The notes beneath the pieces were generated by a model. That model made no database searches, was not told the origin of the DNA, and was given only the letters and a program-made list of their open reading frames with translations. A program made the position numbers and the translations under genes. A stretch of 36,794 nucleotides of DNA from an uncultured Thermoflexus sp. (GTDB lineage: Bacteria > Chloroflexota > Anaerolineae > J036 > Brachytrichaceae), in NCBI GenBank assembly GCA_964560745.1, contig CAZLOF010000001.1, positions 1 through 36,794 of the forward strand, given 5' to 3'. Numbering within the stretch: the first letter of the stretch is position 1; every line of letters begins with the position of its first letter. Of the stretch, positions 7,525 to 35,509 are shown in pieces.

Positions 7525-7641
7525 GCCTAGCTTCCCTTGTAGAATGCGACATTTTACCTGCAACGCACATGACCATTAAAAGTATTGGTGCTATTGTCAT
7601 TATGGTAGGCGTTATTTTGCTCGATTGCGCCCGGAGGGCTG
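7525..7641. promoter_or_regulatory. divergent intergenic region between the 7524->1 and 7642->12089 blocks; candidate promoters
   Basis: This is the largest non-coding gap in the window and is AT-rich (ttaaaagtattggtgctattgtcattatgg). A plus-strand TAGAAT at 7540-7545 points at the plus block. A minus-strand CATAAT at 7599-7604 points at the minus block. I found no convincing -35 element for either. Confidence 0.3.
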
Positions 7642-16131: not shown

Positions 16132-16193
16132 GTTCATTCTCCCTTTTATTTCCCGCTCCCCGCCGCATGTTGTCGGGAGCTGCACGATTTATT

Positions 16194-18497: not shown

Positions 18498-18506
18498 TGT
18501 GCGTCT

Positions 18507-19688: not shown

Positions 19689-20371
19689 TGATCCTCGCGC
19701 ATGCGCTTGCCGGCACACAGGGCAAAAAGGTACTGCGCCATGGGCTGATAGCCGGTGTGGATGACTTCGTCGTTCATGGAGAACATGAATACATTGTCAA
19801 AATACTCGAGCATGAGCGACTTGATCTCTGGACCTTTCTTGCAGTTGATATGACCGATCTTGCTGAGCGGCGCGGCATAGGCTTGAGATTCGAGCGATGG
19901 CATGCCGACAATCAACACACCTTCTGGCGTCAGGCTGGATACGATGTTGTCGAGAAATTGGCGTTCGCTGGCCTGCTCAATGTGTTCGAGCACGTCGAGG
20001 GTATAGGCGCCATCAAACTCGCCCGGCACAGACCCCGAGAGCATGTCATGCACCGCCAAAGTGAACGGCCAAGTCGGATCGGCACGTTCTTGTGCATCTT
20101 CGATGAACAAGGGGTCGATATCCACGGCGTGCAGTTCGCCCACTTCCTGCAATACGATGCGGACAGGAAAAGCATCACCGCATCCGACTTCGAGTACCCG
20201 CTTTTTACCTGACAGCATTTTGGCAATGAACTTATAGCGGGCGAGAACGAACACCAGGCGTTTGGGATCACCATGCCAGTTGGCATTCTTCTCCACACCG
20301 AGCCGGGTCAGGCCCTGCTTTTCCTTGAGTTCGATATGGCTTTCGTATTGACGCTCTACTGTTCTTGCCAT
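19685..20371 (-). CDS. class I SAM-dependent methyltransferase
   Basis: VLEVGCGDAFPV (motif I), AVDIDP, and YTLDVLEHI...LTPEGVLIVGMP. The ATG at 20371 is preceded by GGAGGAAATTAAGGC. Confidence 0.8.
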   Translation of the reverse strand: MARTVERQYESHIELKEKQGLTRLGVEKNANWHGDPKRLVFVLARYKFIAKMLSGKKRVLEVGCGDAFPVRIVLQEVGELHAVDIDPLFIEDAQERADPTWPFTLAVHDMLSGSVPGEFDGAYTLDVLEHIEQASERQFLDNIVSSLTPEGVLIVGMPSLESQAYAAPLSKIGHINCKKGPEIKSLMLEYFDNVFMFSMNDEVIHTGYQPMAQYLFALCAGKRMREDQ

Positions 20372-20414
20372 GCCTTAATTTCCTCCGCGATTCGCCTTGT
20401 TGCGTCTAATTGGT

Positions 20415-21626: not shown

Positions 21627-21628
21627 CG

Positions 21629-22876
21629 TTAGGGGATCAAATCGATATCAGGCAGAGGTACCAGAAACCTGCCGCCACGCCGGATGTATTCCTGATGCTT
21701 GGCCACGATAGGCTGCGCATAGCGCCAGGCCAGGATAATAATCAGCGCAGGCTGGTACTGAAGGACACCCTCACCTGAATATACGGGCAGGTCGTAGCCC
21801 GGCCCCTCGATCCGGTCCTTGAAGGGCGTATCGTCGAACATGAAGTCCAATTTATCTTCCAGTTCAAACTGGTGAATCAGGGCGGCGCAGCCAACAGAGG
21901 TTCCGTAGGCGGCAATAGATTGGCCACCAGCACGAGCTTCAACAATCAGGGCATGCAATCTTGTCTTGATGTCAGCAACCTTTGCACTGAAGCGCTGGTG
22001 GTAGGCGGGATCATAAAGACCTGTCTCGTTTTCCAAAGCAATCAGCTCACCGACTCTTGCCGAGACCTGCCGAGGGCCGCCCTTATGTTGAATCCAGAAA
22101 CGAATGGAACCACCTTTAGTGTGGATGCGCTCGGCGTCGAAGACTTCCAGACCAAATCGGGCAAAGGCCCGTGCTACTGGCTGAACCGAGAAACATGAGA
22201 TGTGTTCGTGGTAAATCACGTCCAGCAACGTGTGCTCGAAGACGTCGAGTGCGTACTGTGTTTCGAAGGCATAGGCACCGTCATCCTTTAGCAGGGTCTT
22301 GACGCCCCGGATGATATCCTCCAGGTTGTCGATATTGGCCATCACATTGTTGGACAGAATCAAATCAGCGCGACCCACAGTCTGCATAAGATCGCCAGCC
22401 AAGCGTTCGCCAAAGAAGTCGGCCCGCGTCGGGATACCGCGGGCCGTGGCTTCGGCTGCGATGACACCCGCCGGATCTATGCCCTGGACGTGCATTCCCT
22501 TCTCACGGAAGAAATTGAGCAACGTGCCATCGTTACTGCCAAACTCGACCACAAGACTGTCCGGCCGCAACTCAAGCCGTTCGACTGCGCCGTCGCAGAG
22601 GGACCCGAAGTGCTCTGCGAGCCCCTTGGATATCGCAGTACGGTAAAGATAGTTGCGGTAAATCAGCGAGGGATCGACCACGTGGATCAGCTGTATCAAA
22701 CCGCAATCGCGACACAGATATGTGTCCAGCGGTGCCACGGTAGATGTCACGGACTTTTCCGTGACATCTACGTTGGGCGAAACGATAGGCACTTTTGCCA
22801 GAGGAACGCTCAGTTCAATAGCTGATGAACCACAGCAGCGGCATGTTTTGCGGAGATGGACAAGTTCAGTGGACAT
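21629..22876 (-). CDS. NDP-hexose C-methyltransferase family protein (TylC3-like architecture)
   Basis: CRCCGS...CRDCGLIQL (Zn ribbon), VVEFGSNDGTLLNFF (motif I), GIDPA, and EHISCFS with the C-terminal AAYGTSVGCAAL domain. The start is set at ATG 22876 (MSTELVHL), overlapping the upstream gene by 11 nt. Confidence 0.8.
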   Translation of the reverse strand: MSTELVHLRKTCRCCGSSAIELSVPLAKVPIVSPNVDVTEKSVTSTVAPLDTYLCRDCGLIQLIHVVDPSLIYRNYLYRTAISKGLAEHFGSLCDGAVERLELRPDSLVVEFGSNDGTLLNFFREKGMHVQGIDPAGVIAAEATARGIPTRADFFGERLAGDLMQTVGRADLILSNNVMANIDNLEDIIRGVKTLLKDDGAYAFETQYALDVFEHTLLDVIYHEHISCFSVQPVARAFARFGLEVFDAERIHTKGGSIRFWIQHKGGPRQVSARVGELIALENETGLYDPAYHQRFSAKVADIKTRLHALIVEARAGGQSIAAYGTSVGCAALIHQFELEDKLDFMFDDTPFKDRIEGPGYDLPVYSGEGVLQYQPALIIILAWRYAQPIVAKHQEYIRRGGRFLVPLPDIDLIP

Positions 22877-23939
22877 GCTTTGCCTCGTTATATTCGATCC
22901 GGTGCCAGATATCTTCAATCAAGCGAAGATCATTCATTGCATCGACGCCGTTGGTGAGCGGCGGCTGTCGTTCTAGCAAATTGCCGACAAAAGCATGGGC
23001 CTGACACTTAAAGCTCCAGATTTTTTCGATGGGAAGTTCTCGCACACCGACAGCCCTATTATTTTCATTGATGCGAACGCGACCGACTTGATCGACAGCC
23101 ATTGGAGATGGAATTTCCAATAGGAGACGACCTTTTTCGAAGATGAACTCAGCCCCCTGAAGCCATTCGCCGCTCGCGCTCTTGGCAAGTTCAAAGACGA
23201 CTGGAGTTCGGTTGGCTTCAAATGTGGCGGTTAGCCCTCCCTGAATCGGTGACCCTGCGTGCACCAAACGCAGTTCATTGGCAGGAAAAAAATAAGTTAG
23301 TAGATTAATGTCATGGCTGGCAGCATTCATGAACCAGGCATAGTCATCCGCGCGTGTCTTGGAAAGCCAATCGGGTGATGTAGGCCATGTCTCAAACCGG
23401 ACCGTTCGACTTTCCTCTGGTCTTTTGTGTTGTGGTGGTGGGTGAGCGTAATCGCGGGCGTAGTCGTAGAACCTTGCCAGCAACATCTGTCCAAGCACGC
23501 CAGAACTGACTAGTTGATCCACTTCTTGCTTGGCCGCTTGGACACCGGGGTCATAGCGTTTCATGAAAGCTACGCCGAGGAGCTTATCCATTTCGGCAGC
23601 TTTATTGACCAGTTTTGTCGCCTGTTGGAGGGTGTGCGCCAACGGCTTCTCAACCAATACATCCTTGCCTGCTTCAATTGCGGCGAGCGTTAATGAGCCT
23701 GAGGCCGGACGCGGAGCAATGATTACAATTGCGGAAATATTTGGGTCGTCGAACAGTACATGATGATCCGGAACAACTCGGTTCACTCCAACTGCATCAT
23801 GTAGATGCCGAACCAGCGAAGGCCTCGACTCGGCGACAGCAACTACTTCACAGCGTTGGTCCGCAAGATAAAACGGGAGATGGGCAATTTGGCTCACCAT
23901 ACCACCGCCGACAATACCGATTTTGATACGAGTACTCAT
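22866..23939 (-). CDS. Gfo/Idh/MocA-family NAD(P)-dependent oxidoreductase
   Basis: IKIGIVGGGMVSQIAHLPFY...VVAVAE and DVLVEKPLA, the family's EKP motif. The ATG at 23939 is in an ATGA overlap with the upstream stop. Confidence 0.85.
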   Translation of the reverse strand: MSTRIKIGIVGGGMVSQIAHLPFYLADQRCEVVAVAESRPSLVRHLHDAVGVNRVVPDHHVLFDDPNISAIVIIAPRPASGSLTLAAIEAGKDVLVEKPLAHTLQQATKLVNKAAEMDKLLGVAFMKRYDPGVQAAKQEVDQLVSSGVLGQMLLARFYDYARDYAHPPPQHKRPEESRTVRFETWPTSPDWLSKTRADDYAWFMNAASHDINLLTYFFPANELRLVHAGSPIQGGLTATFEANRTPVVFELAKSASGEWLQGAEFIFEKGRLLLEIPSPMAVDQVGRVRINENNRAVGVRELPIEKIWSFKCQAHAFVGNLLERQPPLTNGVDAMNDLRLIEDIWHRIEYNEAKHVH

Positions 23940-24598
23940 TCGAAATATATAAACTCATAGTCGCCGGTATAACCAAAATGGTTGTACAGCCAAATCCACT
24001 CGGCAGTATCGAACAGCGATTCTGCTGTCAATGCCCAACATTCCAAGTTGAACATTTCCTGTTCGTCCCTGTAACTCTCAACCATTACGTACGCGGATTT
24101 ACCAACGCGCTCAATTTCGCCTAAGGCCGTCTTGAGCTCAAAAATGCGAAGGTTATGCAGTGTTGCTAAAGAAATTACCAAGTCAAAATGCTTGTCGCCA
24201 AAAGGTAGGGGATCTTGTGCGCGGTATCTGACTAGGGAATCCCGGATATCTTCCGGAGCGTCAGCCAATCCATGCTTTGAGATATCAAACCCTACACACG
24301 TTGCTCCCGGGAGCAATTGCTTAAGCTCATATAGAAGATGTGCCTTGCCACAACCAACGTCCAGAATGCGCGCACCGGGCAATAGTCCATATGTCTTGAT
24401 TAACTGCTCGGCAACTGGCTTCCAACGACCGGTATATCGATATCCACCGAAACCATAACGCCGGTCACCGTCCCAATAGTCAACCTCATATTCTTTCGCC
24501 TTACGCATGCAATGTACTTTGTCATCAAGCATGCGAGCCAAGTAATCACGTTTTGTACTTTTGTGAAGCGTTGAAACTATATCGAGCTGTCGCCCCAT
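23936..24598 (-). CDS. class I SAM-dependent methyltransferase
   Basis: ILDVGCGKAHLLYEL (motif I), GFDIS, and DLVISLATLHN. ATG at 24598. Confidence 0.8.
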   Translation of the reverse strand: MGRQLDIVSTLHKSTKRDYLARMLDDKVHCMRKAKEYEVDYWDGDRRYGFGGYRYTGRWKPVAEQLIKTYGLLPGARILDVGCGKAHLLYELKQLLPGATCVGFDISKHGLADAPEDIRDSLVRYRAQDPLPFGDKHFDLVISLATLHNLRIFELKTALGEIERVGKSAYVMVESYRDEQEMFNLECWALTAESLFDTAEWIWLYNHFGYTGDYEFIYFE

Positions 24599-24654
24599 AG
24601 CTAATCACCCTATCCACGCCGCCGCTTTTTTTTCCGTTGCTGAAATGTCTTGAA

Positions 24655-25374
24655 TCATGTTTTCGACTCAACTGACACGATCTTTCCATGCTCTAAATGG
24701 ATAATCTTGTTGCACTGATCTTGAATCATTGCGTGGTTGTGGGAGGCAATCACAACTATCTGCGCATTACTCAACATACGATCAAGACGTGCCTTAGCCT
24801 TCGTCGCAAATTCGGAGTCGCCAACACTAAGCCATTCATCCATGAGGACGATATCCGAGTCGAAACATGTGGAAATCGCAAAGGCTAAGCGCATTGTCAT
24901 GCCACTTGAATATGTTCTTATGGGTAGATGGAGAAAGTCGCCAAGGCCGGAAAATTCTTCAATCTCTTCGATTGCCGCAGCCATTTGTTTTTTTGGGATC
25001 CCCATTACGTGGCCGCGCATAAATGCATTTTCTAAGCCGCTGGCCTCCATATCCATGCCGAGCGTAATACTAAGCATCGATGTAACCCGGCCTTTGACTG
25101 TCATCTCGCCTGCGACAGGTTCATAGATACCGGCAAGAGCTCTCAAGAGAGTCGATTTCCCCGAACCGTTGTGACCAATCAACCCGACTCTATCGCCCTC
25201 ATGGAATTCAAAATTCAGTCTATCGAGTGCTCGAACAACGACGTGGTTGGAAGCATCTTTTGCTAATGCACCGCCGGTTGCCGCATGAAGAATTTTTTTC
25301 TTAATTGATCGATTGGTTGTGCTTCCGTAAATCGGAAATTCAATAACCAAATCTTTTGCATGGATCAAGGGCAT
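24655..25374 (-). CDS. wzt: polysaccharide ABC exporter ATP-binding protein, short form without a C-terminal carbohydrate-binding domain
   Basis: GLIGHNGSGKSTLLRALAGI (Walker A), YSSGMTMRLAFA (signature) and IVLMDEWLSVGD (Walker B). The start is set at ATG 25374 (MPLIHAKDL), 4 nt after the permease stop, giving about 239 aa. Confidence 0.9.
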   Translation of the reverse strand: MPLIHAKDLVIEFPIYGSTTNRSIKKKILHAATGGALAKDASNHVVVRALDRLNFEFHEGDRVGLIGHNGSGKSTLLRALAGIYEPVAGEMTVKGRVTSMLSITLGMDMEASGLENAFMRGHVMGIPKKQMAAAIEEIEEFSGLGDFLHLPIRTYSSGMTMRLAFAISTCFDSDIVLMDEWLSVGDSEFATKAKARLDRMLSNAQIVVIASHNHAMIQDQCNKIIHLEHGKIVSVESKT

Positions 25375-25378
25375 AGCT

Positions 25379-26239
25379 TTATATCCAGTATGCCACTCTA
25401 GAACGGAACCTCGAAAACAGGGCCAAGGCGAAAATAGAACCAAAAATCAGCATTCCAAACGCAACGGACCAAGATAGCAGGGCAACCGCCTGTCCCACCA
25501 AAGGAGCTCGAATCAATTCAACCAAATGATATAGCGGATTCACGTCGGCAATAATCCGGTTTGGGCCAAGCATATCGGCCTTCCAAAGTATCGGACTGAT
25601 GAAGAAGGCTACCTGAATTAAATTCGCCACGATCTGCGGAATATCTCTGAATCTCGCACATAGCAGCGCCACGACCAAACCAACCCAGAAAAGGTTTCCG
25701 ATCACTACAATAAGACCCACACCAGAAGTGAATACCTTTGAAATTTCGTCAGGAGGGAAAGCAATCACCAGCACCAGAATAATCGCAGCGTTATGCGCAA
25801 AAACGATTACATTTCTGGCAAGCACACGTAGCAAATGGACAGAGAGAGGGAGATTTATTTCTTTTATATACCCTGACGCACCAATAAAAGCAGTACAGGA
25901 ATCATTTACTACGCCGGAGATAAATAGCCAGATAATCAAGCTAATGCCCAAGTGTTGCAGATAGGGGCCAATTTCCTGATTGAGCAAGGCGCCATAAAGC
26001 GGCCCCATTGCTGCGACCATGAGCCCAGTGCTGATCGTAATCCAGAATGGGCCGATAACTGACCGACGATATCGCTGCTTTATATCTTGCCATGCCAAGT
26101 GAAACCAGAGCTGCGTGCCAAACAATCCCTGCTGGATATCTGTCACGCCTTTCTGCAATTGACTTAAATAATTTTTATCGGCCACAAGTTCTCTTGATTT
26201 AAAAAACAGCTTCTGGACTGTATAAAACTTGGGAGCCAA
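25379..26239 (-). CDS. wzm: ABC-2-type polysaccharide exporter permease
   Basis: AWQDIKQRYRRSVIGPFWITI, the typical Wzm/TagG/KpsM N-terminal motif, followed by about six hydrophobic segments. The start is uncertain. 26239 is a TTG, and the in-frame GTG at 26185 is an alternative. Confidence 0.8.
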   Translation of the reverse strand: MAPKFYTVQKLFFKSRELVADKNYLSQLQKGVTDIQQGLFGTQLWFHLAWQDIKQRYRRSVIGPFWITISTGLMVAAMGPLYGALLNQEIGPYLQHLGISLIIWLFISGVVNDSCTAFIGASGYIKEINLPLSVHLLRVLARNVIVFAHNAAIILVLVIAFPPDEISKVFTSGVGLIVVIGNLFWVGLVVALLCARFRDIPQIVANLIQVAFFISPILWKADMLGPNRIIADVNPLYHLVELIRAPLVGQAVALLSWSVAFGMLIFGSIFALALFSRFRSRVAYWI

Positions 26240-26287
26240 GAGCTTTGGCTACTGCCAAAATCAGTGGTTTCCATGCATTGATCTTGA

Positions 26288-27352
26288 TTACACAAAAAAC
26301 GAATGATCCTTATCGAGAGAGAGATATTCGTGGATGGCGAGATTTTTGGCATGACTGACACAGTGATGACCGCATTGGACGGAGGGATCAAAGGAAGTGA
26401 GAAATTTCTGGTTCTCCTCTGAGAACCAGAACTCCTTGAATGATCGGTTCGCTATCGAACCCATCCGGCCAGATTCGGTATAGGCCTTGTCTTGACACGT
26501 ATAAACCATTTGGTCTGCACCGATCACGGTCAAGAATTGAAGGAATGGACAGGTGTGATAATTTTTCTCAAACCTGTCTTCAAGGTCGTGGTAGTGGTTG
26601 AGTATGCTGAAGGTTCCATCGGAAAGAGTTTGTGCTTCAGCGATCTGCCGTGCGACTTCTGTCTTGATCGACTGGTGGTAGTCATTGTTTCCGGCAGCAT
26701 CATTGCTAACAACCGCCCCCGACACTTTTACGTGATTGACGCCGCAGTCTTTGAGCAACGAGCATACTTCTGCAATATGCCTGTGATTATTTTGGCCTAC
26801 GATGAGGCTAATCCCCAGTACGCATTTGGTATCACGGGCGGTGAATGCGCAAATATTGTCAACAAGACGTGAAAAATCGTCGCGTTTTGCCCCTCTGCTT
26901 TTCACATAACTCTCATCATCCCAAGCGTCGATGGATATGCGTACCCAAGTACCATGCCGTGCCAACGAATCGGCTACTCGCCCTTTGAGGTTGGAGCCGT
27001 TGCTCAATGCAGCAACCCTGACCCCTCCTGCGGCAAGTACCTCAATTACATCCGGCAATGGCTTGTACAGAAGTGGTTCGCCGCCACCCGAGAACGTTAC
27101 AGCCTTGACGCCGATATCAACAAATTCTTGAGCAAGTGAAAGCATTCTGGCTGCCGGGATGCTGTCCTTTTCAACCATCTCACCACCCAGTGCCAAATCA
27201 TCGGTTCGGTAGGCGCAATACCAACAGTTATGGTTGCAGAGATTGGTCGGTTTTACCCGGATGTGCACCGGTGCAACGACGCGACCCTGTGCAAGCCCCT
27301 GGAGGTGATCCTTGAATTGCAAAAATTTAAGTGAGCTGTAATAAGTGGCCAT
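26288..27352 (-). CDS. radical SAM protein with extra C-terminal cysteines (possible auxiliary-cluster domain)
   Basis: VKPTNLCNHNCWYCAY (Cx3Cx2C), SGGGEPLL, and C-terminal Cys motifs (TCPF, YTCQ, CGHHC). The track start at 27385 is a TTG inside the upstream gene. I prefer ATG 27352 (MATYYSSLKF), 11 nt after the upstream stop. Confidence 0.85.
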   Translation of the reverse strand: MATYYSSLKFLQFKDHLQGLAQGRVVAPVHIRVKPTNLCNHNCWYCAYRTDDLALGGEMVEKDSIPAARMLSLAQEFVDIGVKAVTFSGGGEPLLYKPLPDVIEVLAAGGVRVAALSNGSNLKGRVADSLARHGTWVRISIDAWDDESYVKSRGAKRDDFSRLVDNICAFTARDTKCVLGISLIVGQNNHRHIAEVCSLLKDCGVNHVKVSGAVVSNDAAGNNDYHQSIKTEVARQIAEAQTLSDGTFSILNHYHDLEDRFEKNYHTCPFLQFLTVIGADQMVYTCQDKAYTESGRMGSIANRSFKEFWFSEENQKFLTSFDPSVQCGHHCVSHAKNLAIHEYLSLDKDHSFFV

Positions 27353-27363
27353 GAGCTTGGGTT

Positions 27364-27762
27364 CTATGCAGATGTCTGGACGCAATATAGCAATGTGAGA
27401 CGGACCTGCCAGAGGGTTTCAATGCGCTCACACTCTTGCACAGTACTCGCACTCATGCCCTCGACTGCAAAATGCATGGCCTTTTCCTTTGCCACTATCC
27501 GGCTGTAAATTTTTTGGCGAAGTGCTGAATCCTGAGGTAGCTGAAACAGGCTATATGCTACAAAGCCATCTATTTCATCAAGCTCTTCTATAACCTGCTC
27601 GAGAATCAGGTGACTGTTCGGCATTGCATATTCAGTCGCACTTAAGAGGAAGTGCAAACAATTACGTTCGCAATAATCTCGGATCACCAGATTTTGAACA
27701 TGCTGGGGTACGCGCTCCCCCATGAACGGCCTGCTGAAAATATATCCTCGAGCTTGGTTCAT
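27364..27762 (-). CDS. 132-aa uncharacterised protein; resembles what I recall as the LIC12192-family 'sporadic carbohydrate cluster' protein
   Basis: MNQARGYIFSRPFMGERVPQHVQNLVIRDYCERNCL... has no catalytic motif I can assign. It is tightly embedded, with an ATGA overlap to the oxygenase stop at 27759-27762. The family assignment is from memory only. Confidence 0.55.
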   Translation of the reverse strand: MNQARGYIFSRPFMGERVPQHVQNLVIRDYCERNCLHFLLSATEYAMPNSHLILEQVIEELDEIDGFVAYSLFQLPQDSALRQKIYSRIVAKEKAMHFAVEGMSASTVQECERIETLWQVRLTLLYCVQTSA

Positions 27763-28553
27763 AATATTTGTGGAAGACGGTAAGCCATGCCCGTACGCGA
27801 CGCTGCACGAAGGGTAATTGGCTCAAAAAACTCACCGATTTTTTTGTCCCCATAAGGTGTGAAAACCCCTTTGAACCTGCAGTTCATAGACCAACGGGTT
27901 TCCTTCTCCTCATTGACACGATTGCCATGAGGGAGTGCCTGGTTAAAGACGAGCACTTCTCCATACCGAACTTCGAGCCATTTCACTTGCTCTTTGATCG
28001 ACTGATACAAAGTCTCGCTACTACCTCCCGCACGCTCCGCAAAATTTGTATCAAGCCCTGCAGCTGACTGCGGTGGCAATAGATACATCGCTTTTGTACG
28101 ATAGCAGTCCACCAGTGGCAGCCAAACCACCACTTCAAAAGGTGAATCACCTGACCAGGTATCGGCATGTATCGGCAATAGAGAGCTGTCATCTCCTGGT
28201 AATTGAATGCTTAGGTTGATCCTAAGCTGCATGGCCAACTCGTTGCCGACCAATGCTTCCAGATAGGGCCGCGCTACTCGGAAATACATTTCGCGAAACC
28301 CATCGATGGCATTAAAGCCGCGTATTATTTGCATCCGAAATGCATTCAGGGCTTTGGTGCCGACTTTTTGATGAACCTGGTTCAAAAGATCCTCTGGCTC
28401 ACCAACTGTCTCTACGCCAAGTGCATCGCGAATCAAACGAAGAAATTGATCGCGCATCCAGCCCAGTGCCTCAACATCTGCCACTGGTCGAATGACATAC
28501 CCTTGTTCCAGGTATTCCTTCGTAAGATCCTTTTCTATCTGGGTAAGAAACAT
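27759..28553 (-). CDS. 2-oxoglutarate/Fe(II)-dependent oxygenase (phytanoyl-CoA-dioxygenase-like)
   Basis: LPIHADTW (HxD), ALPHGN (distal His) and RWSMNCRF (2OG-binding Arg). The track ORF (to 28709) overlaps the transketolase gene by 155 nt. ATG 28553 (MFLTQIEKDL) lies 1 nt after that gene's stop. Confidence 0.7.
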   Translation of the reverse strand: MFLTQIEKDLTKEYLEQGYVIRPVADVEALGWMRDQFLRLIRDALGVETVGEPEDLLNQVHQKVGTKALNAFRMQIIRGFNAIDGFREMYFRVARPYLEALVGNELAMQLRINLSIQLPGDDSSLLPIHADTWSGDSPFEVVVWLPLVDCYRTKAMYLLPPQSAAGLDTNFAERAGGSSETLYQSIKEQVKWLEVRYGEVLVFNQALPHGNRVNEEKETRWSMNCRFKGVFTPYGDKKIGEFFEPITLRAASRTGMAYRLPQIL

Positions 28554-28554
28554 T

Positions 28555-29484
28555 TCAAATCTTGCGAAGTTTTTTGCGCATAGTTTCGGCAATTGAATCA
28601 GCAGTAATTCCCCAATGGCCGAGGAGAGAGTCCTGGCTACCGTACTGCTTGGCAAAACAATCGGGAATCCCAATTCTCGCAACTTTTCTGGCCTGATCCG
28701 GCAGTTCATCGCTGCAATATTCGAGAATAGCGCTACCCAGCCCGCCGATACGTGTGTGCTCTTCTACACTAACCAGCGCATCCACTTTAGGAAGCCAATG
28801 ATTCAGCGCCGCATGATCCAAAGGTTTGATGGTATGCATGTGCAGAACGCCGCAGGCCAATCCCTCATTTGCAAGTTGCTCAGCCGCCTTTAATGCAAGC
28901 TGAGTCATCACGCCTGTCGTAACGAATATGCCTGTACCCGGCTCCTTCAGCAGAATTGCCCTACCGATCTCAAACCCAAGCTCTTCGCGACTGATGACCG
29001 CATCGCCACCTTTGCCTAGCCGAATATAAATTGGATGCGGCCAATCAATTGTTTGCACCATTAAGCGACGCATCTCTTCCGCATCGCAGGGAGCAACTAC
29101 TGTCATATTTGGCAGGGCACGCATGATGGCAATATCTTCTACCGCCAGATGGGTCGGGCCAAGCGGCGCATAGACCACGCCTCCGCCACTTGCAATCAGC
29201 CGTACCGGAAGATCTTGAAGGCAAAGATCCAGTGCGACCTGTTCATAGCAGCGCCGGGTAAGAAATGTCGCAATGGTGTTGATGTAGGGAATAAACCCGT
29301 TCATCGCCAAGCCTGCCGCCATACCTACGACATGCTGCTCGCTTACCCCTTCCATAAAAAATCTCTCAGGGATATCGCGCTTCATGCCATCCAGAACACC
29401 GGGCCCAAGATCAGAGCCTATAAAGACAATGCGGGGATCGTTCTTGGCGAACTGATAAACCGAATCCAAACTTGTTTTACGCAT
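28555..29484 (-). CDS. transketolase, C-terminal (pyrimidine-binding) subunit of a split enzyme
   Basis: VFIGSDLG, FMEGVSEQHVVGMAAGLAMNGFIPY, and the IGIPDCF end region. About 309 aa, as in split TktB-type subunits. Confidence 0.9.
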   Translation of the reverse strand: MRKTSLDSVYQFAKNDPRIVFIGSDLGPGVLDGMKRDIPERFFMEGVSEQHVVGMAAGLAMNGFIPYINTIATFLTRRCYEQVALDLCLQDLPVRLIASGGGVVYAPLGPTHLAVEDIAIMRALPNMTVVAPCDAEEMRRLMVQTIDWPHPIYIRLGKGGDAVISREELGFEIGRAILLKEPGTGIFVTTGVMTQLALKAAEQLANEGLACGVLHMHTIKPLDHAALNHWLPKVDALVSVEEHTRIGGLGSAILEYCSDELPDQARKVARIGIPDCFAKQYGSQDSLLGHWGITADSIAETMRKKLRKI

Positions 29485-29499
29485 TTATTCACTCGCTGA

Positions 29500-30303
29500 T
29501 CAGGTAAGGCACTCATACATGGCCGCAATATCGTCTTCGGAGAGGCCGGATTTATGATGCCACTCAGCCTTTCCTTCGGCAAAGTGAAAGCCTTTGCCCT
29601 TGATTGTGTGGCAAATGACAGCCGTTGGTTTCTCTACATTCAGTGGCAAACGAGCCATCAGGGATTCCAATGCGCCGACATCGTGGCCATTGATTTCCTC
29701 GACCGCAAAGCCAAAGCTGCGCCACTTTTCCGGCAGCGGTTCCAGGTCAAGGACCTCACTTGTTGCGCCGTAGGATTGCAGTTTGTTGTAATCAACAAAT
29801 ACTGTAAGGTTGGAGAGTCTATGCTTGGCAGCTGACATCGCAGCCTCCCAAACCGATCCCTCGTTTATTTCTCCATCGCCGGTAACGACCACCACTCTGT
29901 ATGACTGCTTTCGAATTTTCGCGGCCAGCGCCATACCGACCCCCATTGAGAGGCCATGGCCGAGAGCTCCTGTAGAGGCTTCGACCCCTGGCAGTTTTCC
30001 CCATTCGGGGTGGCCTCCCAAACGGGATGTAGGAGCACAAAATGTCAAAAGCTCTTCTTTCGGGAAAAAGCCTTTATCCGCCAATAGCGCATATAGCGTG
30101 AGACATCCGTGGCCTTTACTCAGGATAAAGCGGTCACGATCAGGCCACGTCGGGTCATTCGCCCTGTATTGAAGGAAAGAGTCATACAGGACTCTGAGAA
30201 TCTCCACCATAGACATTGAAGACCCCAAATGCCCACGACGGCCACCTTCAAGAGCCTGTACGATGGTGCGCCTAAGATGCTTCGATCGCTGATCCATAGA
30301 CAT
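29500..30303 (-). CDS. transketolase, N-terminal (ThDP-binding) subunit of a split enzyme
   Basis: GHLGSSMS, SKGHGCLTLYALL, GALGHGLSMGVGMALA and VVTGDGEINEGSVWEA. The ATG at 30303 is preceded by a strong AAGGAG 7 nt upstream, located inside the 3' end of the upstream gene. Confidence 0.9.
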   Translation of the reverse strand: MSMDQRSKHLRRTIVQALEGGRRGHLGSSMSMVEILRVLYDSFLQYRANDPTWPDRDRFILSKGHGCLTLYALLADKGFFPKEELLTFCAPTSRLGGHPEWGKLPGVEASTGALGHGLSMGVGMALAAKIRKQSYRVVVVTGDGEINEGSVWEAAMSAAKHRLSNLTVFVDYNKLQSYGATSEVLDLEPLPEKWRSFGFAVEEINGHDVGALESLMARLPLNVEKPTAVICHTIKGKGFHFAEGKAEWHHKSGLSEDDIAAMYECLT

Positions 30304-31918
30304 GGATTAACTCCTTAATTTCTTGAAGAAGGGCTTTGGATTTTTTGAGTTGCTCACGGCGAATCTCACCCAAATCAGCAGCCTTCATGGGGTCGGCATG
30401 CAAACGTTGGGCAGCGCCATGCTTCAGATATTCATTGAGAAGAATTAAGCACCATTTCAATCCGAACAACGGCAGATAGGCATCTAATCTTTGATCAAAA
30501 GTCTCGTCACACTCGAATATTTCGCGTGCGTTATGGATCCATTTTTCTCGCGATGCTGAAGTCAGGGACATCCCGGGATGCCAATAAAAATCTGACACCA
30601 ACTTGACTGGGTCGTCCCAGCCAAAATATTCAAAATCAATATAGACGATCTCCCCATCATCAGTTCGCAATGCATTGTGGGAGCCGAAATCTGATGGGCT
30701 CAGCATTTGTATTTTTTTCGAGATCGGCATATGAAAATCTTTACCGCATCGAATTTTTGCTCGCTGAGTAGCCTCAAGAAAACATGGTAGGAAATCACGA
30801 TTCACGTAATCTGACAGTACGTCAGATTCAACTACAAGCAATCGCTGTAGCCGCTGTTCAATCTGTGCCGTCAAATCCGAACCACTGAGACAGGCCTCCG
30901 AGGCCAGCGGAAATTGAACTTTGGTGCCTATCAATTGAGTATCACAAAAAAGCTGGCGGACGAACTCAGTTGCATCAGCCAAGAACGCTCCGTCAAACGA
31001 GGACGTTGCTCCTCCCGAAACCCACTTAAAAATCCCCCAGCCGAGCTTCGAATCAGCCACGACGGGTTCGGTCACTCTGTAGCCAGAGCTTTTAAGCTCT
31101 TTGCATGCAGAGAATTCCGTGTCTAGTCTAGGTCTCGAATCTCGCTGTCGATCTGGGTATACCTTTAAAGCGTAGTTGTTGGCACCGCCATCCGTCAGGG
31201 CATATATCCTGCTGTTACCCCTACCTTTTATTAGCTTTGCCTGCTTAACGCCAAGCTCCGGAAAAACTGTCCGGACAACTTGGGAAATTTCGTCATCCTG
31301 CCATCCCCCATGAAGTTCTTGAGCAATATCACGCCATGAGTCAGAAACATGCACGCTCGGGGAACTGGCGCTCACACCCGACGACTGGAATAGAATTTTC
31401 TTTGTCGATGATGGAAAACTTGGCTCTTCAAATACTTCTCGTAGATCATCAATGAAGTGAGTACATTCAAGAATCTGGATTCGGCGAATCTTGTCTTCGC
31501 GAGTAGATTCAAAAAAAACTTGATCCCTAGACAGCGCAAGTCCATTCTCAGCAAAAATCCCATTTTTTTGCATCCAATGTATCGCTTGCTCGCGCAACGG
31601 TACGCGGTCTTCATCAAAATGCCCGAATTCCGATTTGTGGCTTACGATGAAAACCTCATATCCCCGTAACTTGCATAGGTATAGAAATTCATAAAAACCG
31701 GGAAACGCTTCCGCACGCAGCATGTGCTTCCCGTAAACCTGCCCCTGCAATCGCTGCCAGTCCACATCGCCGCCGGGCCGCCTTAATATGCTCTCCTTGA
31801 TGGCCGACTTTGATGAGTGCTGCTGGGGCGAAACAAAACCCATCAATGACGCTACATCACTGAACGCCCGGTCATAACACGCTATCGTGTTATCGAAATC
31901 GACTCCAATTCGAAGCAT
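30272..31918 (-). CDS. fusion protein: N-terminal HAD-superfamily hydrolase-like domain + C-terminal aminoglycoside/choline-kinase-type (APH fold) kinase domain
   Basis: MLRIGVDFDNTIA (HAD motif I, DxDxT). The C-terminal SPSDFGSHNAL....IVYIDFEYFGWDDP matches the APH/ChoK catalytic loop (H.N) and the metal-binding DFE. The ATG at 31918 shares one base with the upstream stop (TAATG). Confidence 0.7.
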   Translation of the reverse strand: MLRIGVDFDNTIACYDRAFSDVASLMGFVSPQQHSSKSAIKESILRRPGGDVDWQRLQGQVYGKHMLRAEAFPGFYEFLYLCKLRGYEVFIVSHKSEFGHFDEDRVPLREQAIHWMQKNGIFAENGLALSRDQVFFESTREDKIRRIQILECTHFIDDLREVFEEPSFPSSTKKILFQSSGVSASSPSVHVSDSWRDIAQELHGGWQDDEISQVVRTVFPELGVKQAKLIKGRGNSRIYALTDGGANNYALKVYPDRQRDSRPRLDTEFSACKELKSSGYRVTEPVVADSKLGWGIFKWVSGGATSSFDGAFLADATEFVRQLFCDTQLIGTKVQFPLASEACLSGSDLTAQIEQRLQRLLVVESDVLSDYVNRDFLPCFLEATQRAKIRCGKDFHMPISKKIQMLSPSDFGSHNALRTDDGEIVYIDFEYFGWDDPVKLVSDFYWHPGMSLTSASREKWIHNAREIFECDETFDQRLDAYLPLFGLKWCLILLNEYLKHGAAQRLHADPMKAADLGEIRREQLKKSKALLQEIKELIHVYGSAIEAS

Positions 31919-32910
31919 TACTGCAAATTCAAACTTTGCATACGTTTGATGTTGAAGTAACGTTCATCCTGTAGTGAGTTCGGTAGCTTGTTTTCCTCAA
32001 ATGCCTTTCGAATACCTTCCACTGCATCGCGAATCGTGTGCTGCGGAATGAAGCCGAGCTTCTCCGCAATTTTCTTCGATGAAATATGGTACGAACGATT
32101 ATCATCGGTTGGAGAACAAACCAGCTTTACGTCATCACCAATCACAGCTTTAACCGTTTCCGCCAATTCCAGAACAGATTGATTCTCGTAGCCGGCATTG
32201 AATGTCTCTCCCGCAATGATTTCTGTCGGGGCTTTCAACAGCAGAAGATAGCTTTCGACCATGTCTTGAATATGAATATTCGGACGTAATTGCTTGCCCC
32301 CAAAGACGGTAATTTCTCGCTTGTGATATGCAAGATTTGTCAAAATATTAACGACAACATCGAGCCGTTGACGTGGTGAATATCCGCACACTGTAGCGGG
32401 TCGGATGGTCACTGTAGTGAAATCCGGAGACTGATATTCAGCAAGGATTTTTTCGCAATCCGCCTTGAATTTCGAATAATCAGTCAAGGGCTCTAACGAC
32501 ATCCCCTCATGGACATTTGATTCTTCTTTGATGCCGTATACCGATGACGAGGATGCATAAATAAATCTTTTTACCCCCGACTGTTTACTGATTTCAACCA
32601 AAGGTCTGAAGGCATCAAGATTGATGGACTTCCCCAGATCGGGGTTTAGTTCGAAGCTGGGATCATTGGAGATGCAGGCCAAATGAATCGCCGCATCATG
32701 TCCCGGAACAGTCTTTTTCAACAGCGCCCTGTCACGAACATCCCCCTTGATCATCGTAAGTTTTGGATGCGACTGAATCACTTCTTCACCGTAAATCATC
32801 AGGTCAAAAACAGTTACCGCATAGCCTTCCTCTAGCAATCTGGGCACAAGAACAGCGCCAACATAGCCAGCTCCGCCAGTAATAAAAATTCGCTTTAATT
32901 CATTATTCAT
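31918..32910 (-). CDS. NAD-dependent epimerase/dehydratase (extended SDR)
   Basis: IFITGGAGYVGAVL (GxxGxxG), ASSSSVYG and YSKFK (YxxxK). The track start at 32922 is a TTG. I prefer ATG 32910 (MNNELKRIF). Confidence 0.85.
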   Translation of the reverse strand: MNNELKRIFITGGAGYVGAVLVPRLLEEGYAVTVFDLMIYGEEVIQSHPKLTMIKGDVRDRALLKKTVPGHDAAIHLACISNDPSFELNPDLGKSINLDAFRPLVEISKQSGVKRFIYASSSSVYGIKEESNVHEGMSLEPLTDYSKFKADCEKILAEYQSPDFTTVTIRPATVCGYSPRQRLDVVVNILTNLAYHKREITVFGGKQLRPNIHIQDMVESYLLLLKAPTEIIAGETFNAGYENQSVLELAETVKAVIGDDVKLVCSPTDDNRSYHISSKKIAEKLGFIPQHTIRDAVEGIRKAFEENKLPNSLQDERYFNIKRMQSLNLQ

Positions 32911-32956
32911 CGTCGTATCCAATTCATCTCATCAATGTAGGGTCTGACAAATTCAG

Positions 32957-33943
32957 TCAGTGATTTGCTCCGAGATACCTGAACCAGTCAGTAGTAGCAG
33001 TAGCAATGCTTTCCGGTGTCCAAACAGGGGCATTGCGCCAGTAATCAATATTTTTCAAAACCTCGGAAACCCCCTCCTCAATGGAAACCGTCGGAGCCCA
33101 TCCAAGATCACGCGTAATTTTTCCAATATCTGCAAACGTGCAGTCAGGCTCACCTGGACGTTTTGGTATATTGACCTTCTCTCCGCCAAGAAGCTCGACC
33201 AAACGATTTACAGAAACAGAATTTCCGCTACCAATATTGTAAATACTGCCAACATGCTCACTACTTGCAGCGGCGATCAGCGCTCGTACAACATCAGTTA
33301 CGTAAGTAAAATCTCGTGTTTGGCATCCATCGCCTACAACCGTGAATGGCTTCCCTGCGAGTTTCTGAGCAAGAAACACTCCGAATACGGCACCGTAAGT
33401 CCCAGAAGTTCTTGAGCGCGTCCCATAAACGTTGAAGAAACGGGTGGAGATTGCAGGCAATTTGTATACTTGGGCCCAATGCATCACCATTTCTTCACCA
33501 AGGCGTTTAGTCAAGGCATATGGATATTGAGGCCGAATTTCTGCAGTTTCTGGCGTTGGGTAGTGATCAGGTATTCCGTAACAGGAAGACGAAGCCGCAT
33601 AGACGAATCGGCGGATTGAAGCAGTCACACTTGCCTGCAACATATTGGACGTACCGACCACATTGGCACGGAAATACGGTTCGGGCTGCTGAATGCTAGG
33701 CACAATATCCGCCAATGCTGCGAGATGAAACACCCAATCGACATTGCCTAGATGTCGCATCCATTCGCCCGGCACCGAAATATCGCACTCTATTAGCTGA
33801 ACCATGTTTTTGACATGTTCCAGATTCTCCGGCCGTCCAGTACTGAAGTTGTCTAGCACAACAACTTCATGCCCCATTGCCAACAACGCATCGACAAGAT
33901 GGCTACCGATAAATCCTGCACCGCCTGTAACCAACGACTTCAT
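32957..33943 (-). CDS. NAD-dependent epimerase/dehydratase (extended SDR)
   Basis: MKSLVTGGAGFIGSHLVDALL, ASSSCYG and YALTK (YxxxK). The ATG at 33943 is in an ATGA overlap with the gmhA-like stop. Confidence 0.85.
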   Translation of the reverse strand: MKSLVTGGAGFIGSHLVDALLAMGHEVVVLDNFSTGRPENLEHVKNMVQLIECDISVPGEWMRHLGNVDWVFHLAALADIVPSIQQPEPYFRANVVGTSNMLQASVTASIRRFVYAASSSCYGIPDHYPTPETAEIRPQYPYALTKRLGEEMVMHWAQVYKLPAISTRFFNVYGTRSRTSGTYGAVFGVFLAQKLAGKPFTVVGDGCQTRDFTYVTDVVRALIAAASSEHVGSIYNIGSGNSVSVNRLVELLGGEKVNIPKRPGEPDCTFADIGKITRDLGWAPTVSIEEGVSEVLKNIDYWRNAPVWTPESIATATTDWFRYLGANH

Positions 33944-34506
33944 TGCCCCTTACCCTCTTTCGATAGCCATTGCATGCACATATGCCCAACAATCAGCTGC
34001 AAATCTTCCGCAATTTGCATATCGTTAATCCCAAAATGTATCGAATACTGCGCAATTTCTTTGCAGCGTCCCCCCGTATAGCCAAGGATGGCAAATGTAG
34101 CCATCCCGATCTTGTTACCAACCTCTAGTGCATTTACAACACTTGGAGAATTGCCGCTTCCCGAAAGAACGACTAGAACATCTCCGGGCCGCGCTTTGAC
34201 ACGAAGTTGCTCCGCGTAGATTTGGTCATAGCCACAATCGTTAGCCAAGCAAGTAATTACTGCAGGGTTGGCACTCAACGCCTCTACGTGCATTCCTCCA
34301 CCGTTTTCTATACCCACCCCGTAGAGAAAATCGTTTGCCAAATGAACCGCATTTCCTGCACTACCGCCGTTGCCACAAAAATATATCGCACTCCGATCAC
34401 GCCATGCGGTGCGCAAAGCTTCTCCAAAAACTGGAATCGTTTCCATCCCCGGCAGGGATAGCGCACCAATCAGCCTGTGGGTGTAGTCAGTAATATGTGC
34501 TTGCAT
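33940..34506 (-). CDS. gmhA: SIS-domain sedoheptulose-7-phosphate isomerase-like protein
   Basis: IYFCGNGGSAGNAVHLANDF and VLVVLSGSGNSPSV are GmhA-type SIS motifs. It is 188 aa and is the first gene of the long minus-strand array. Confidence 0.8.
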   Translation of the reverse strand: MQAHITDYTHRLIGALSLPGMETIPVFGEALRTAWRDRSAIYFCGNGGSAGNAVHLANDFLYGVGIENGGGMHVEALSANPAVITCLANDCGYDQIYAEQLRVKARPGDVLVVLSGSGNSPSVVNALEVGNKIGMATFAILGYTGGRCKEIAQYSIHFGINDMQIAEDLQLIVGHMCMQWLSKEGKGQ

Positions 34507-34573
34507 CGATAATTCCAGACAATCGGACGAAGCATTCTACCGGTTTGGAATACAAATTGCAGCATGGGGCAGG
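34507..34573 (-). promoter_or_regulatory. leader/promoter region of the 22-kb minus-strand array; contains TAGAAT (-10-like) inside an ops-like ACCGGTAGAATG
   Basis: Minus-strand reading: CCTGCCCCATGCTGCAATTTGTATTCCAAACCGGTAGAATGCTTCGTCCGATTGTCTGGAATTATCG, then ATG. TAGAAT lies at 34534-34539. The best -35 candidate is weak (CTGCAA, 17-nt spacer). An imperfect inverted repeat, TTCCAAAC / GTCTGGAA, flanks the element. Confidence 0.3.
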
Positions 34574-35509
34574 TCATACCGCACGGTACATGGCACCGAT
34601 GACAGATGCGGATGAAACGCCCCCCCACCCATCATTCGCCGCACACCGAACCATCAAATCCTCCGTCCCAGAGAACCGATCCAGATCCGACAGCATGATC
34701 GCCTCCAGCATCGCTGGCTTGCGAATTCCCAGCCACTCAGGCGCCGCCTTGCTCGACGTAAGACAATGCAGAAGCGCCTCGTAGTGCCCCTTGGGAAGAA
34801 TGATGCGATGCTTGGCCATGGCCTTCGCGATCCACTCGATGTTGGTGATCTTATGTCCGAGCAGACGACCTCGGTCGCTTAGCTTCCAGCTGCCATCGCT
34901 TTTCAGTAGATACTCGTCCGCCTTGCCCGCATCGTGGAGCAAACCCGCGAGCACGCCGAGCGGCGCGCTGGAGATGTCCTTGCGACCGCACCACTCGCGC
35001 ATCATCGCCGCCACGTCGATGGCGTGGGCGAGATTTCCATTGTCTCCGTTGTGATGCCCGTTCATTGACGAAGGCCCTGTGCAGAAGCGGCGGAACCGTT
35101 CGCCTTCCCAAAAGATCGCGTTGAACAGATGCCGGTGACCGCGCGGCAGAAGCTCAAGAAGGTCAGCCCCCTTTCTCACCAGGCTCCGATCCCGAACCCA
35201 CCCCGTTGGCACCAGATCGAAGAGGTTTTCAATCGGCACGGGATACTCAACCAGGACAAGCCGGCTGATGCGGATCGCGCCTTGCTCGCTCACCGGCGTC
35301 GTCGCGAGCCAGCGAGGCGAGACAAGGAGGTTCGACTTGATGCGTGTGTCCGGGCGGGCAGTCGTCCATTTCACGTTGAGCGAGGCGCGCTCGTGGAAGA
35401 GGGTGGCCGAACAATCGGTGCGTTTGTGATCGATCACTTTCGCCGAATAGCTTGTCAAACGAAAGATCGACGGCAACGACGGCAGATCAAGGTTGGTGAT
35501 TTCATCCAT
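34574..35509 (-). CDS. HD-domain phosphohydrolase/nuclease-like protein (YhaM / TraI_2-type HD core)
   Basis: PSSMNGHHNGDNGNLAHAIDVA and GLLHDAGK (the HD dyad), with later GHKITN and LSDLD. The N-terminal ~100 aa is beta-rich and could be an OB fold. The start is set at ATG 35509 (MDEITNLD), with GGAG 7 nt upstream, overlapping the integrase stop by 8 nt. Confidence 0.65.
   Translation of the reverse strand: MDEITNLDLPSLPSIFRLTSYSAKVIDHKRTDCSATLFHERASLNVKWTTARPDTRIKSNLLVSPRWLATTPVSEQGAIRISRLVLVEYPVPIENLFDLVPTGWVRDRSLVRKGADLLELLPRGHRHLFNAIFWEGERFRRFCTGPSSMNGHHNGDNGNLAHAIDVAAMMREWCGRKDISSAPLGVLAGLLHDAGKADEYLLKSDGSWKLSDRGRLLGHKITNIEWIAKAMAKHRIILPKGHYEALLHCLTSSKAAPEWLGIRKPAMLEAIMLSDLDRFSGTEDLMVRCAANDGWGGVSSASVIGAMYRAV

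Follow-up and report, generated by a model that had tools for sequence, protein, structure and literature searches.

Analysed here is a stretch of 36,794 nucleotides (the window) of an uncultured Thermoflexus sp. (contig CAZLOF010000001.1 of assembly GCA_964560745.1), in which a conserved cassette of about ten genes was identified that most likely builds an unusual modified cell-surface sugar. A preliminary description of the window had singled out six consecutive minus-strand genes as a sugar-tailoring module, i.e., those for a radical S-adenosylmethionine enzyme (rSAM), a small protein of 132 residues, a 2-oxoglutarate (2OG)/Fe(II) oxygenase, both subunits of a split transketolase-like enzyme (TktN and TktC) and a HAD-kinase fusion. 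Comparison of loci revealed that the six genes are not the whole unit, as two extended short-chain dehydrogenases/reductases (SDR1 and SDR2), a SIS-domain isomerase and a class-I methyltransferase of 220 residues (MT220) belong to it likewise; the order of the conserved unit reads SIS-SDR-SDR-HAD/kinase-TktN-TktC-oxygenase-small-(rSAM)-MT220 and its copy in the window extends from 23,936 to 34,506. What was read from the genes themselves is the gene set, its order and conservation, the domains and motifs of the encoded proteins, an altered transketolase pocket and several protein fusions.

A genome scan yielded 80 loci, of which those 49 with at least 8 kb of flanking sequence on both sides were used for all counts; presence or absence of each gene was determined per locus by tblastn with the proteins of the window, the units compared being loci of ~20 kb rather than whole genomes. 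The oxygenase and the small protein were identified in all 49 loci, TktC in 47, TktN and MT220 in 46 each, SDR1 and the kinase in 42 each, and SDR2, the HAD domain and a protein composed of a PfkB kinase and a nucleotidyltransferase domain (PfkB/NT) in 41 each, the latter usually being encoded between both SDR genes. HAD and kinase co-occur in 40 loci, in 19 of which they are fused and in 20 separate. The SIS protein was found in 24 loci (23 of them with kinase), an NTP_transferase in 18 (17 with kinase), rSAM in ten and a classical GmhB in only two. As to gene order, in 46 loci at most 60 nt lie between the end of the oxygenase gene and the start of the small-protein gene, TktN, TktC, oxygenase and small protein are colinear within 4 kb in 39, and MT220 starts at most 2.5 kb downstream of the small-protein gene in 42. 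These counts are far beyond chance and rule out a fortuitous juxtaposition of the cassette genes; the expectation that the genes travel together outside this genome was hence borne out, across phyla.

The hosts of the 80 loci comprise Beta-, Gamma- and Alphaproteobacteria (the latter including Pelagibacteraceae, SAR116, Reyranella and Skermanella), cyanobacteria, seven Leptospira species, Actinobacteria, Bdellovibrio and Myxococcales, and one locus was assigned to Chitinophaga. The proteins of the window cassette share 60-86% identity with their counterparts from cyanobacteria and Leptospira, with cross-phylum maxima of 81-86%; SDR1 is up to 81% identical in cyanobacteria and the median identity of SDR2 over the loci is 66%. 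The small-protein family comprises at least 2213 clusters at 90% identity, and 819 representatives at 50% identity were found with E <= 0.001. A complete cassette including rSAM is carried by Paramagnetospirillum magneticum (P. magneticum) AMB-1 (locus L082; AP007255.1, 66,111-87,175), and a minimal one, in which HAD and kinase are absent or a fragment, by six loci that are mostly from Pelagibacteraceae (L039, L042, L043, L052, L077 and L028).

For the split transketolase-like enzyme, a reaction type can be proposed. TktN carries PF00456 with 168 bits, and both subunits align with the split transketolase of Carboxydothermus hydrogenoformans (6YAK/6YAJ) with 247 bits (TktN, against 6YAK) and 198 bits (TktC), whereby the two-gene architecture and fold are shared and both the thiamine diphosphate (ThDP) motif (GDGEINEG...DYN in TktN) and the cofactor glutamate (EQH in TktC) are kept. 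The model NF004559, which describes the full-length enzyme and has a cutoff of 488, is not reached by either subunit (TktN 253.8, TktC 191.8). In contrast to the cofactor residues, those contacting the substrate were found to be replaced: the 6YAK segment 'ATHAGLTVGEDGASH' reads 'A[S/N]GGGxVYAPLGPTH' in every cassette TktC, the canonical 'THAGLTVGEDG' has become 'SGGGVVYAPLG', which is conserved over the cassette subfamily, and 'DLSKST' and 'RLGRSG' are changed into 'DLGPGV' and 'RL[A/G]KGG', so that the His and Asp of 'THAG...GEDG' and the Ser of 'SKST' are Gly, Leu and Gly in the cassette. By what we take to be the corresponding segment of E. coli TktA, these changes map to H461->G, D469->L and S385->G, with R358 being retained and R520 probably being Lys. 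The loss of the canonical substrate-binding His, Asp and Ser rules out a housekeeping tkt, a role that would have spoken against a specialised module, and the genomic context is an O-antigen cassette rather than central metabolism. In a directed-evolution study (PMC5073344), the triple exchange S385Y/D469T/R520Q is reported to have moved E. coli transketolase from phosphorylated to non-phosphorylated and to aromatic aldehyde acceptors, from which it follows that these three positions govern the acceptor class.

The enzyme varies among the loci. Both loci devoid of TktN and TktC carry an E1 alpha/beta ThDP enzyme, which in L072 lies exactly at the transketolase position, and in the six minimal cassettes named above TktC is a protein of ~163 residues, made up of the Pyr domain and devoid of the transketolase C-terminal domain, whilst L024 possesses a second Tkt pair beside the cassette. 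Retention of the ThDP motifs and of the cofactor Glu, the altered pocket and the E1 alpha/beta substitutes suggest that what the cassettes have in common is a ThDP-dependent transfer of two carbons to an acceptor other than the canonical one.

The two genes present in all loci correspond to NCBIfam models named 'sporadic carbohydrate cluster', which the preliminary description had named and which do match. The small protein was assigned to TIGR04323 (LIC12192 family) with 147.8 bits (cutoff 55; residues 4-122 of 132) and the oxygenase to TIGR04324 with 313.7 bits (cutoff 150), both far above the curated cutoffs and encoded adjacently, as the family names imply. These models come without a function, and their definitions cover neither the larger gene set with its optional rSAM nor the fold and the methyltransferase fusions of the small protein. 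Neither full-text searches on the two families nor the names in NCBIfam release 20 yielded an assigned biochemistry, and the searches returned no paper on either family or on the cassette proteins, in agreement with the earlier statement that this gene combination has no assigned biochemistry. The HxD...H...R pattern noted for the oxygenase is present, with H129-x-D131, H209, R220 and R226 (numbering of the 264-residue protein) being invariant in 27 homologues; its Pfam PhyH match has an E-value of only 0.01, and neither a single-sequence nor a profile search identified a significant sequence relative in the PDB.

For the small protein, Pfam gave no match and a profile search gave no sequence relative in the PDB. 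It had been described as having no assignable motif, which no longer holds given its resolvase-like predicted fold and its fusions to methyltransferases. The AlphaFold2 model (predicted local distance difference test, pLDDT, 78.9; predicted template modelling score 0.74) comprises an N-terminal GY..SR strand-loop and a long C-terminal helix, and Foldseek placed it closest to serine-recombinase catalytic domains (3guv, 3g13, 1gdt, 3bvp; E 3e-3 to 2e-2, TMq 0.5-0.63) at 9-16% identity, with DNPH1/nucleoside deoxyribosyltransferase folds as runner-up (TMq ~0.38). The likeness to serine recombinases remains at the level of the fold, as G6, Y7, Q23 and E44, instead of the resolvase Ser/Arg set, are the only invariant residues in a deep alignment (mean column identity 33%, 33-59% to the window protein); P19, N24, S71, R82 and E101 are nearly invariant, and together these residues resemble a catalytic or ligand-binding site more than that of a recombinase. 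A true serine recombinase was rejected, since a helix-turn-helix or other DNA-binding domain is missing and S10 and R11 are not invariant.

Of the best 150 small-protein representatives, all but a few consist of the small protein alone (130-150 residues). P0131, however, is a fusion of the small protein with an MT220 homologue, its C-terminal part being 49% identical to MT220 of the window (E 1e-82), P0242 is a fusion with a class-I methyltransferase and P0121 is a tandem duplication of the small protein. Based on the ATGA coupling of the oxygenase and small-protein genes, their adjacency throughout the loci and the fusions P0131 and P0242, it is suggested that oxygenase, small protein and methyltransferase form a functional triad; in the window, MT220 is set apart from the rest of the cassette by two ABC-transporter (exporter) genes. 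In eight Leptospira loci (L017, L018, L020-L023, L031 and L034) a Nudix hydrolase gene, with a median identity of 78% among its copies, was found between the small-protein gene and MT220.

The enzymes that would supply the activated sugar, referred to here as the front end, were found to be most similar to those of heptose pathways, none of them at an equivalog cutoff. The HAD-kinase comprises a HAD-like phosphatase domain (residues ~1-200) and an APH/choline-kinase-like kinase domain (~200-548; PF01636, 24.4 bits, cutoff 23.2), whereby the HAD motifs D7xD9xT11, S93, K143 and D157-D158 and the kinase residues D410, N415, D428 and E430 are invariant or nearly so in 47 homologues. No Pfam or NCBIfam HAD model matched residues 1-200 or a stand-alone homologue; despite this, judged by the motifs and by a confident AlphaFold2 model (pLDDT 89.6; an alternating beta/alpha N-domain followed by the kinase domain), the HAD assignment holds. 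Foldseek related the kinase domain to LicA, APHs, ChoK and NahK (E ~1e-8) with LicA, the pneumococcal choline kinase, ranking best (E 7e-9), yet the ranking is flat over choline, aminoglycoside, macrolide, hexosamine-1 and methylthioribose kinases and does not fix the substrate class. The SIS protein reaches 96.6 bits against TIGR00441 gmhA (cutoff 209.45) and thus falls short of a GmhA equivalog. Likewise, the PfkB domain (203 bits against rfaE domain I, cutoff 345) and the NT domain (55.5 bits against domain II, cutoff 181.5) stay below the HldE/RfaE equivalog, their domain order being the reverse of that in HldE.

SDR2 matches GalE, LegB and TviC best among NCBIfam models, all below cutoff. 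Epimerase-type SDRs carry the motif SSSxYG...YxxxK and dehydratase-type ones a D/E motif; SSSCYG ... YALTK was found in SDR2 and SSSSVYG ... YSKFK in SDR1. A 6-deoxygenation via a 4,6-dehydratase is therefore unsupported, and of the unusual monosaccharide put forward initially, which was to be branched, chain-extended or deoxygenated, the deoxygenated variant is without support, while a branched or chain-extended sugar is retained as the putative product.

The rSAM had headed the module in the preliminary description. Its occurrence in only ten of the 49 loci, in seven of which it follows the small-protein gene after 21-36 nt, marks it as an optional accessory. Its CNHNCWYC motif (PF04055, 82.2 bits) is present as described, and the auxiliary Fe-S (SPASM-like) domain was matched, though marginally (PF13186, 23.3 bits, cutoff 21.5). 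The family is uniform (354 residues, 63-87% identity) and reaches no NCBIfam equivalog cutoff; distant matches comprise SkfB, MoaA, TYW1 and a tungsten-cofactor maturase, with SkfB as nearest solved relative (E 2e-6). Five loci (L003, L005, L029, L030 and L058) harbour a different rSAM/SPASM family (~367 residues, ~22% identical to the window rSAM) beside an SDR gene, which is a second, independent rSAM accessory. Downstream of the cassette of P. magneticum AMB-1 (L082, 13048-17154), and also in L081, a second rSAM/SPASM gene was found together with genes for a fused E1 alpha+beta ThDP enzyme (654 residues) and for a protein with lipoyl-attachment and hexapeptide acyltransferase parts; this group looks like a pyruvate-dehydrogenase-like acyl-transfer system in an amino-sugar cluster.

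Considering these data, a pathway is tentatively favoured, at a likelihood somewhat short of probable, in which the cassette makes a nucleoside diphosphate (NDP)-activated, heptose-like sugar that is two-carbon-extended or branched and subsequently hydroxylated and methylated; its substrates, products and order of steps are a proposal. Initially, the GmhA-like SIS protein would convert a sedoheptulose-7-phosphate-like ketose phosphate into the aldose phosphate, from which the APH-type kinase and the HAD phosphatase, together with PfkB/NT and the NTP-transferase encoded elsewhere in the cluster, would form an NDP-heptose or a similar sugar. This heptose logic was derived from the SIS protein being closest to GmhA, from PfkB/NT being closest to the rfaE domains and from the presence of the kinase in nearly all loci that possess SIS or the NTP-transferase. 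Next, one of the GalE-like SDRs would oxidise the NDP-sugar to a keto or aldehyde intermediate, to which the split transketolase-like enzyme with its remodelled acceptor pocket would add a glycolaldehyde-type two-carbon unit, yielding a branched or chain-extended higher-carbon sugar, and the second SDR would reset the redox state. Finally, the TIGR04324 oxygenase would hydroxylate and MT220 methylate the sugar, with the TIGR04323 protein suggested to act as resolvase-fold partner of both enzymes that probably binds a phosphate or nucleotide, and in about one fifth of the cassettes, including that of the window, the rSAM/SPASM protein would add a further tailoring step (epimerisation or oxidation).

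Among known systems close to this step are YerE (yersiniose A) and AviB1/AviB2 (avilamycin, E1 alpha/beta-like), which catalyse ThDP-dependent two-carbon branching of NDP-ketosugars. Likeness to these systems consists in a ThDP enzyme beside SDRs in a deoxy/modified-sugar cluster and in the E1 alpha/beta proteins of some cassettes; YerE, however, is an acetolactate-synthase-like flavoenzyme, the cassette enzyme would draw its two-carbon unit from a ketol or hydroxypyruvate and not from pyruvate, and a 4,6-dehydratase-type SDR is missing from the cassette.

Several points weigh against the proposed pathway. To our knowledge, no transketolase acting on an NDP-sugar has been described, transketolases normally using aldehyde acceptors on sugar phosphates, and the two basic phosphate-site residues that are kept (R2/K3, probably Lys for R520) fit a sugar phosphate as well as an NDP-sugar. 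For no cassette-bearing organism did the literature searched connect a glycan with an unusual sugar of higher carbon number. As cassettes of Pelagibacteraceae occur without HAD, kinase and usually SIS, the front end cannot be obligatory, and the PfkB/NT and APH kinase/NTP-transferase routes are often both present, a redundancy for which the scheme does not account. What the small protein does is conjectured from two fusions and from a fold match that is weak (E ~3e-3). In its most far-reaching form, by which a neofunctionalised transketolase acts on the NDP-sugar to install a two-carbon ketol, the hitherto unrecognised resolvase-fold protein is an obligatory third subunit or enzyme coupling the Fe/2OG hydroxylase to the methyltransferase, and the product, belonging to a new class of higher-carbon or branched surface sugars, is an antigenic determinant that Leptospira serovars, cyanobacteria and SAR11 share through lateral exchange, the idea is conceivable while leaning towards doubtful.

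Of the alternatives considered, the one deserving most attention, unlikely as it is judged to be, places the two-carbon extension at the level of the sugar phosphate. Here, the transketolase would act on a hexose-6-phosphate or heptose-7-phosphate to give an octulose or nonulose phosphate, which the SIS protein would isomerise to the aldose, kinase and HAD would turn into the 1-phosphate and NT would activate, so that SDRs, oxygenase and methyltransferase would tailor an NDP-octose or -nonose. A model for this logic is the lincosamide GDP-octose pathway (LmbR, LmbN, LmbP, LmbK and LmbO), in which C-C extension of a sugar phosphate is likewise followed by isomerase, kinase, phosphatase and nucleotidyltransferase steps, and the combination of GmhA, kinase, phosphatase and NT is established for heptose as well as for the lincomycin octose; the lincosamide enzymes, however, include a transaldolase and a GHMP kinase, and no sequence relationship beyond the SIS, HAD and NT superfamilies exists. 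Translational coupling of HAD-kinase, TktN and TktC (32-nt overlap, 15-nt gap) would suit such a pathway, as would the nearly constant company of the kinase in loci with SIS or the NTP-transferase, the retained basic residues of the phosphate site within a pocket that is enlarged (H->G, S->G, D->L) in a way that would fit a longer phospho-aldose, and the distance of the SIS protein from the GmhA cutoff (96.6 versus 209 bits), which is compatible with another ketose substrate. On the other hand, the Pelagibacteraceae loci and L072 keep Tkt or E1, oxygenase, small protein and SDRs without SIS, kinase and HAD, from which it follows that the ThDP step is not tied to the front end. Moreover, an E1-type replacement would give 1-deoxy-ketoses, which are unusable by a SIS aldose-ketose isomerase, and the ThDP genes abut the oxygenase gene (1-nt gap) and not the SIS gene.

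Should the transketolase simply make sedoheptulose-7-phosphate, the cassette would amount to a supply route for NDP-D-glycero-D-manno-heptose formed by SIS, kinase, HAD and NT, on which the SDRs would act as epimerases while oxygenase and methyltransferase would add a hydroxyl and an O-methyl group. Likeness to the NDP-D-glycero-D-manno-heptose pathways (GmhA; HldE/HddA; GmhB; HldE-C/HddC) lies in SIS, PfkB plus NT, HAD and NTP_transferase; all front-end proteins are nearest to heptose-pathway enzymes, and TktN/TktC are homologous to an active split transketolase (247/198 bits) with intact cofactor residues. From the known heptose pathways the cassette differs in that no equivalog cutoff is reached, the PfkB/NT order is reversed and the HAD-fused kinase is of the APH/ChoK type and not of the GHMP/PfkB type. 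Speaking against plain supply, no cassette TktC retains the three substrate-contact positions that 6YAK shares with E. coli TktA, E1 alpha/beta proteins, which are unable to make sedoheptulose-7-phosphate, substitute in two loci, streamlined SAR11 genomes keep the transketolase, sometimes without its C-terminal domain, and L024 has its second Tkt pair beside the cassette; plain heptose supply is thus considered improbable. Still less credit, amounting to very little, is given to a phosphodiester-linked non-sugar substituent resembling LicA/LicC-dependent phosphocholine, for which ThDP enzyme, oxygenase and methyltransferase would assemble a small alcohol, the kinase would phosphorylate it and a cytidylyltransferase-like domain would convert it into a CDP-alcohol for transfer to the polysaccharide. 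LicA is indeed the best structural match of the kinase (E 7e-9) and the partner gene has a cytidylyltransferase-like PF01467 domain. This, however, is opposed by the flat Foldseek ranking among APH, ChoK and NahK folds, by the NT and PfkB domains matching rfaE domains best, by the core membership of a GmhA-like SIS protein and of two extended SDRs of the NDP-sugar type, by the absence of the kinase from Pelagibacteraceae cassettes and by the lack of any phosphotransferase conserved in the cassette.

Coordinates of the cassette genes and associated features are compiled in the following table.

Table. Cassette genes and associated features of the window, ordered by position.
Feature	Coordinates	Strand	Remarks
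NTP_transferase	5342-6172	-	PF00483, 129 bits
Cytidylyltransferase-like + PfkB kinase	6031-7563	-	PF01467 + PF00294
MT220, class-I SAM methyltransferase	23936-24598	-	220 aa; PF13847 + PF08241
ABC-2 permease + ABC ATPase (Wzm/Wzt-type exporter)	24655-26239	-	PF01061, PF00005
rSAM	26288-27352	-	listed ORF 26288-27385; start taken at ATG 27352
Small protein (TIGR04323)	27364-27762	-	132 aa
Oxygenase	27759-28553	-	264 aa, real start ATG 28553; listed ORF 27759-28709 (316 aa)
TktC	28555-29484	-	PF02779 + PF02780
TktN	29500-30303	-	PF00456
HAD-kinase	30272-31918	-	548 aa; PF01636 + HAD motifs
SDR1, extended SDR, GalE-like	31918-32922	-	PF01370, 133 bits
SDR2, extended SDR, GalE/TviC-like	32957-33943	-	PF01370, 201 bits
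SIS-domain ketose-phosphate isomerase, GmhA-like, divergent	33940-34506	-	PF13580

Inspection of the open reading frames (ORFs) and the sequence confirmed the six consecutive minus-strand ORFs of the preliminary description together with their positions, junctions, Shine-Dalgarno sequence and motifs. HAD-kinase and TktN overlap by 32 nt, the kinase gene ending at 30272 and the TktN ATG lying at 30303 with an AAGGAG 7 nt upstream, within the kinase gene, and TktN and TktC are separated by 15 nt. The TGA of TktC (28557-28555) is followed by the single base 28554 and then by the ATG at 28553, for which reason Met53 of the listed oxygenase ORF was taken as start; the TIGR04324 match, which begins at residue 64 of the listed ORF, agrees with this choice, and the listed ORF would overlap TktC by 155 nt. 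Oxygenase and small-protein genes share an ATGA at 27759-27762. For the small protein, the public gene call (P0001) has 119 residues and starts at Met14, whereas homologues favour the longer form starting at 27762. Its TAG at 27364 is followed, after a gap of 11 nt, by the most likely rSAM start (ATG 27352), which is supported by the uniform length of the rSAM family. Tight packing extends upstream of the six genes, with overlaps of 1 nt between SDR1 and HAD-kinase and of 4 nt between SIS and SDR2, hence the start of the six-gene block was arbitrary. That this block is the most AT-rich part of the window holds roughly (GC 0.492), the minima being located in SDR1 (0.445) and the ABC transporter genes (0.46). 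The low-GC block proper extends over 23,936-34,506 with a GC content of 0.48, as compared to 0.549 outside on the upstream side and 0.587 on the downstream side, and its limits coincide with those of the cassette.

Beyond the SIS gene, a 322-residue ORF without Pfam match and a phage-type integrase gene (35502-36641) lie beside the cassette (34507-36641), and at this boundary the GC content jumps from 0.48 to 0.59; a scan for an island attachment site identified no tRNA gene in the window. The coincidence of the cassette limits with the low-GC block, the cross-phylum identities of 60-86% and the flanking integrase argue for lateral transfer of the whole block. The PfkB/NT gene of the window has a native-like GC content (0.54) and ~27% median identity to the copies in other loci, and may not have arrived with the low-GC cassette. 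The exporter is not a part of the conserved cassette, since its permease had no match in any locus and its ATPase only weak, scattered ones (23-39%).

The window as a whole was identified as a polysaccharide (O-polysaccharide) cluster of the ABC-transporter type. Downstream of the six genes it encodes the Wzm/Wzt-type ABC proteins, MT220, a GFO oxidoreductase, two sugar C-methyltransferase-like proteins, a WbuC cupin and methyltransferases, and further on a methyltransferase/sulfotransferase protein, GT2 glycosyltransferases and a WecA-like GT4 protein; the reversed-order RfaE-like protein, the NTP_transferase and an adenosine 5'-phosphosulfate (APS) kinase belong to the cluster as well. The genes at 17967-23939 (minus strand), i.e., those for the GFO oxidoreductase, both C-methyltransferase-like proteins (PF08421/PF08484), methyltransferases and the WbuC cupin (TIGR04366), accompany the cassette in the window as well as in loci of Leptospira, cyanobacteria and betaproteobacteria (order f16-f9-CMT429-f22-MT403-f17), which suggests a second tailored, C-methylated sugar. 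With the APS kinase (932-1756; PF01583, 229 bits) and the methyltransferase/sulfotransferase protein of 741 residues (13960-16185) being encoded in the same cluster, sulfation of the polysaccharide is possible, as is its capping by a terminator of the WbdD type.

Within this work, the true extent of the cassette, the optional nature of its rSAM, the remodelled transketolase pocket and the E1 substitutes of this enzyme, the predicted fold of the small protein along with its fusions, and the mobility of the block by lateral transfer are newly described. Three signature proteins, i.e., the altered transketolase, TIGR04324 and TIGR04323, are without known reaction or solved structure, and the complete cassette in the genetically tractable P. 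magneticum AMB-1 makes the proposed pathway directly testable. In pathogenic Leptospira, whose O-antigen defines serovars and vaccine specificity, the cassette is located in the rfb (O-antigen) loci, and in Pelagibacteraceae, which are among the most abundant marine bacteria, in surface-glycan islands. Its elucidation would probably reveal a new sugar, new ThDP- and Fe/2OG-dependent carbohydrate chemistry and a function for a resolvase-like fold outside DNA recombination.

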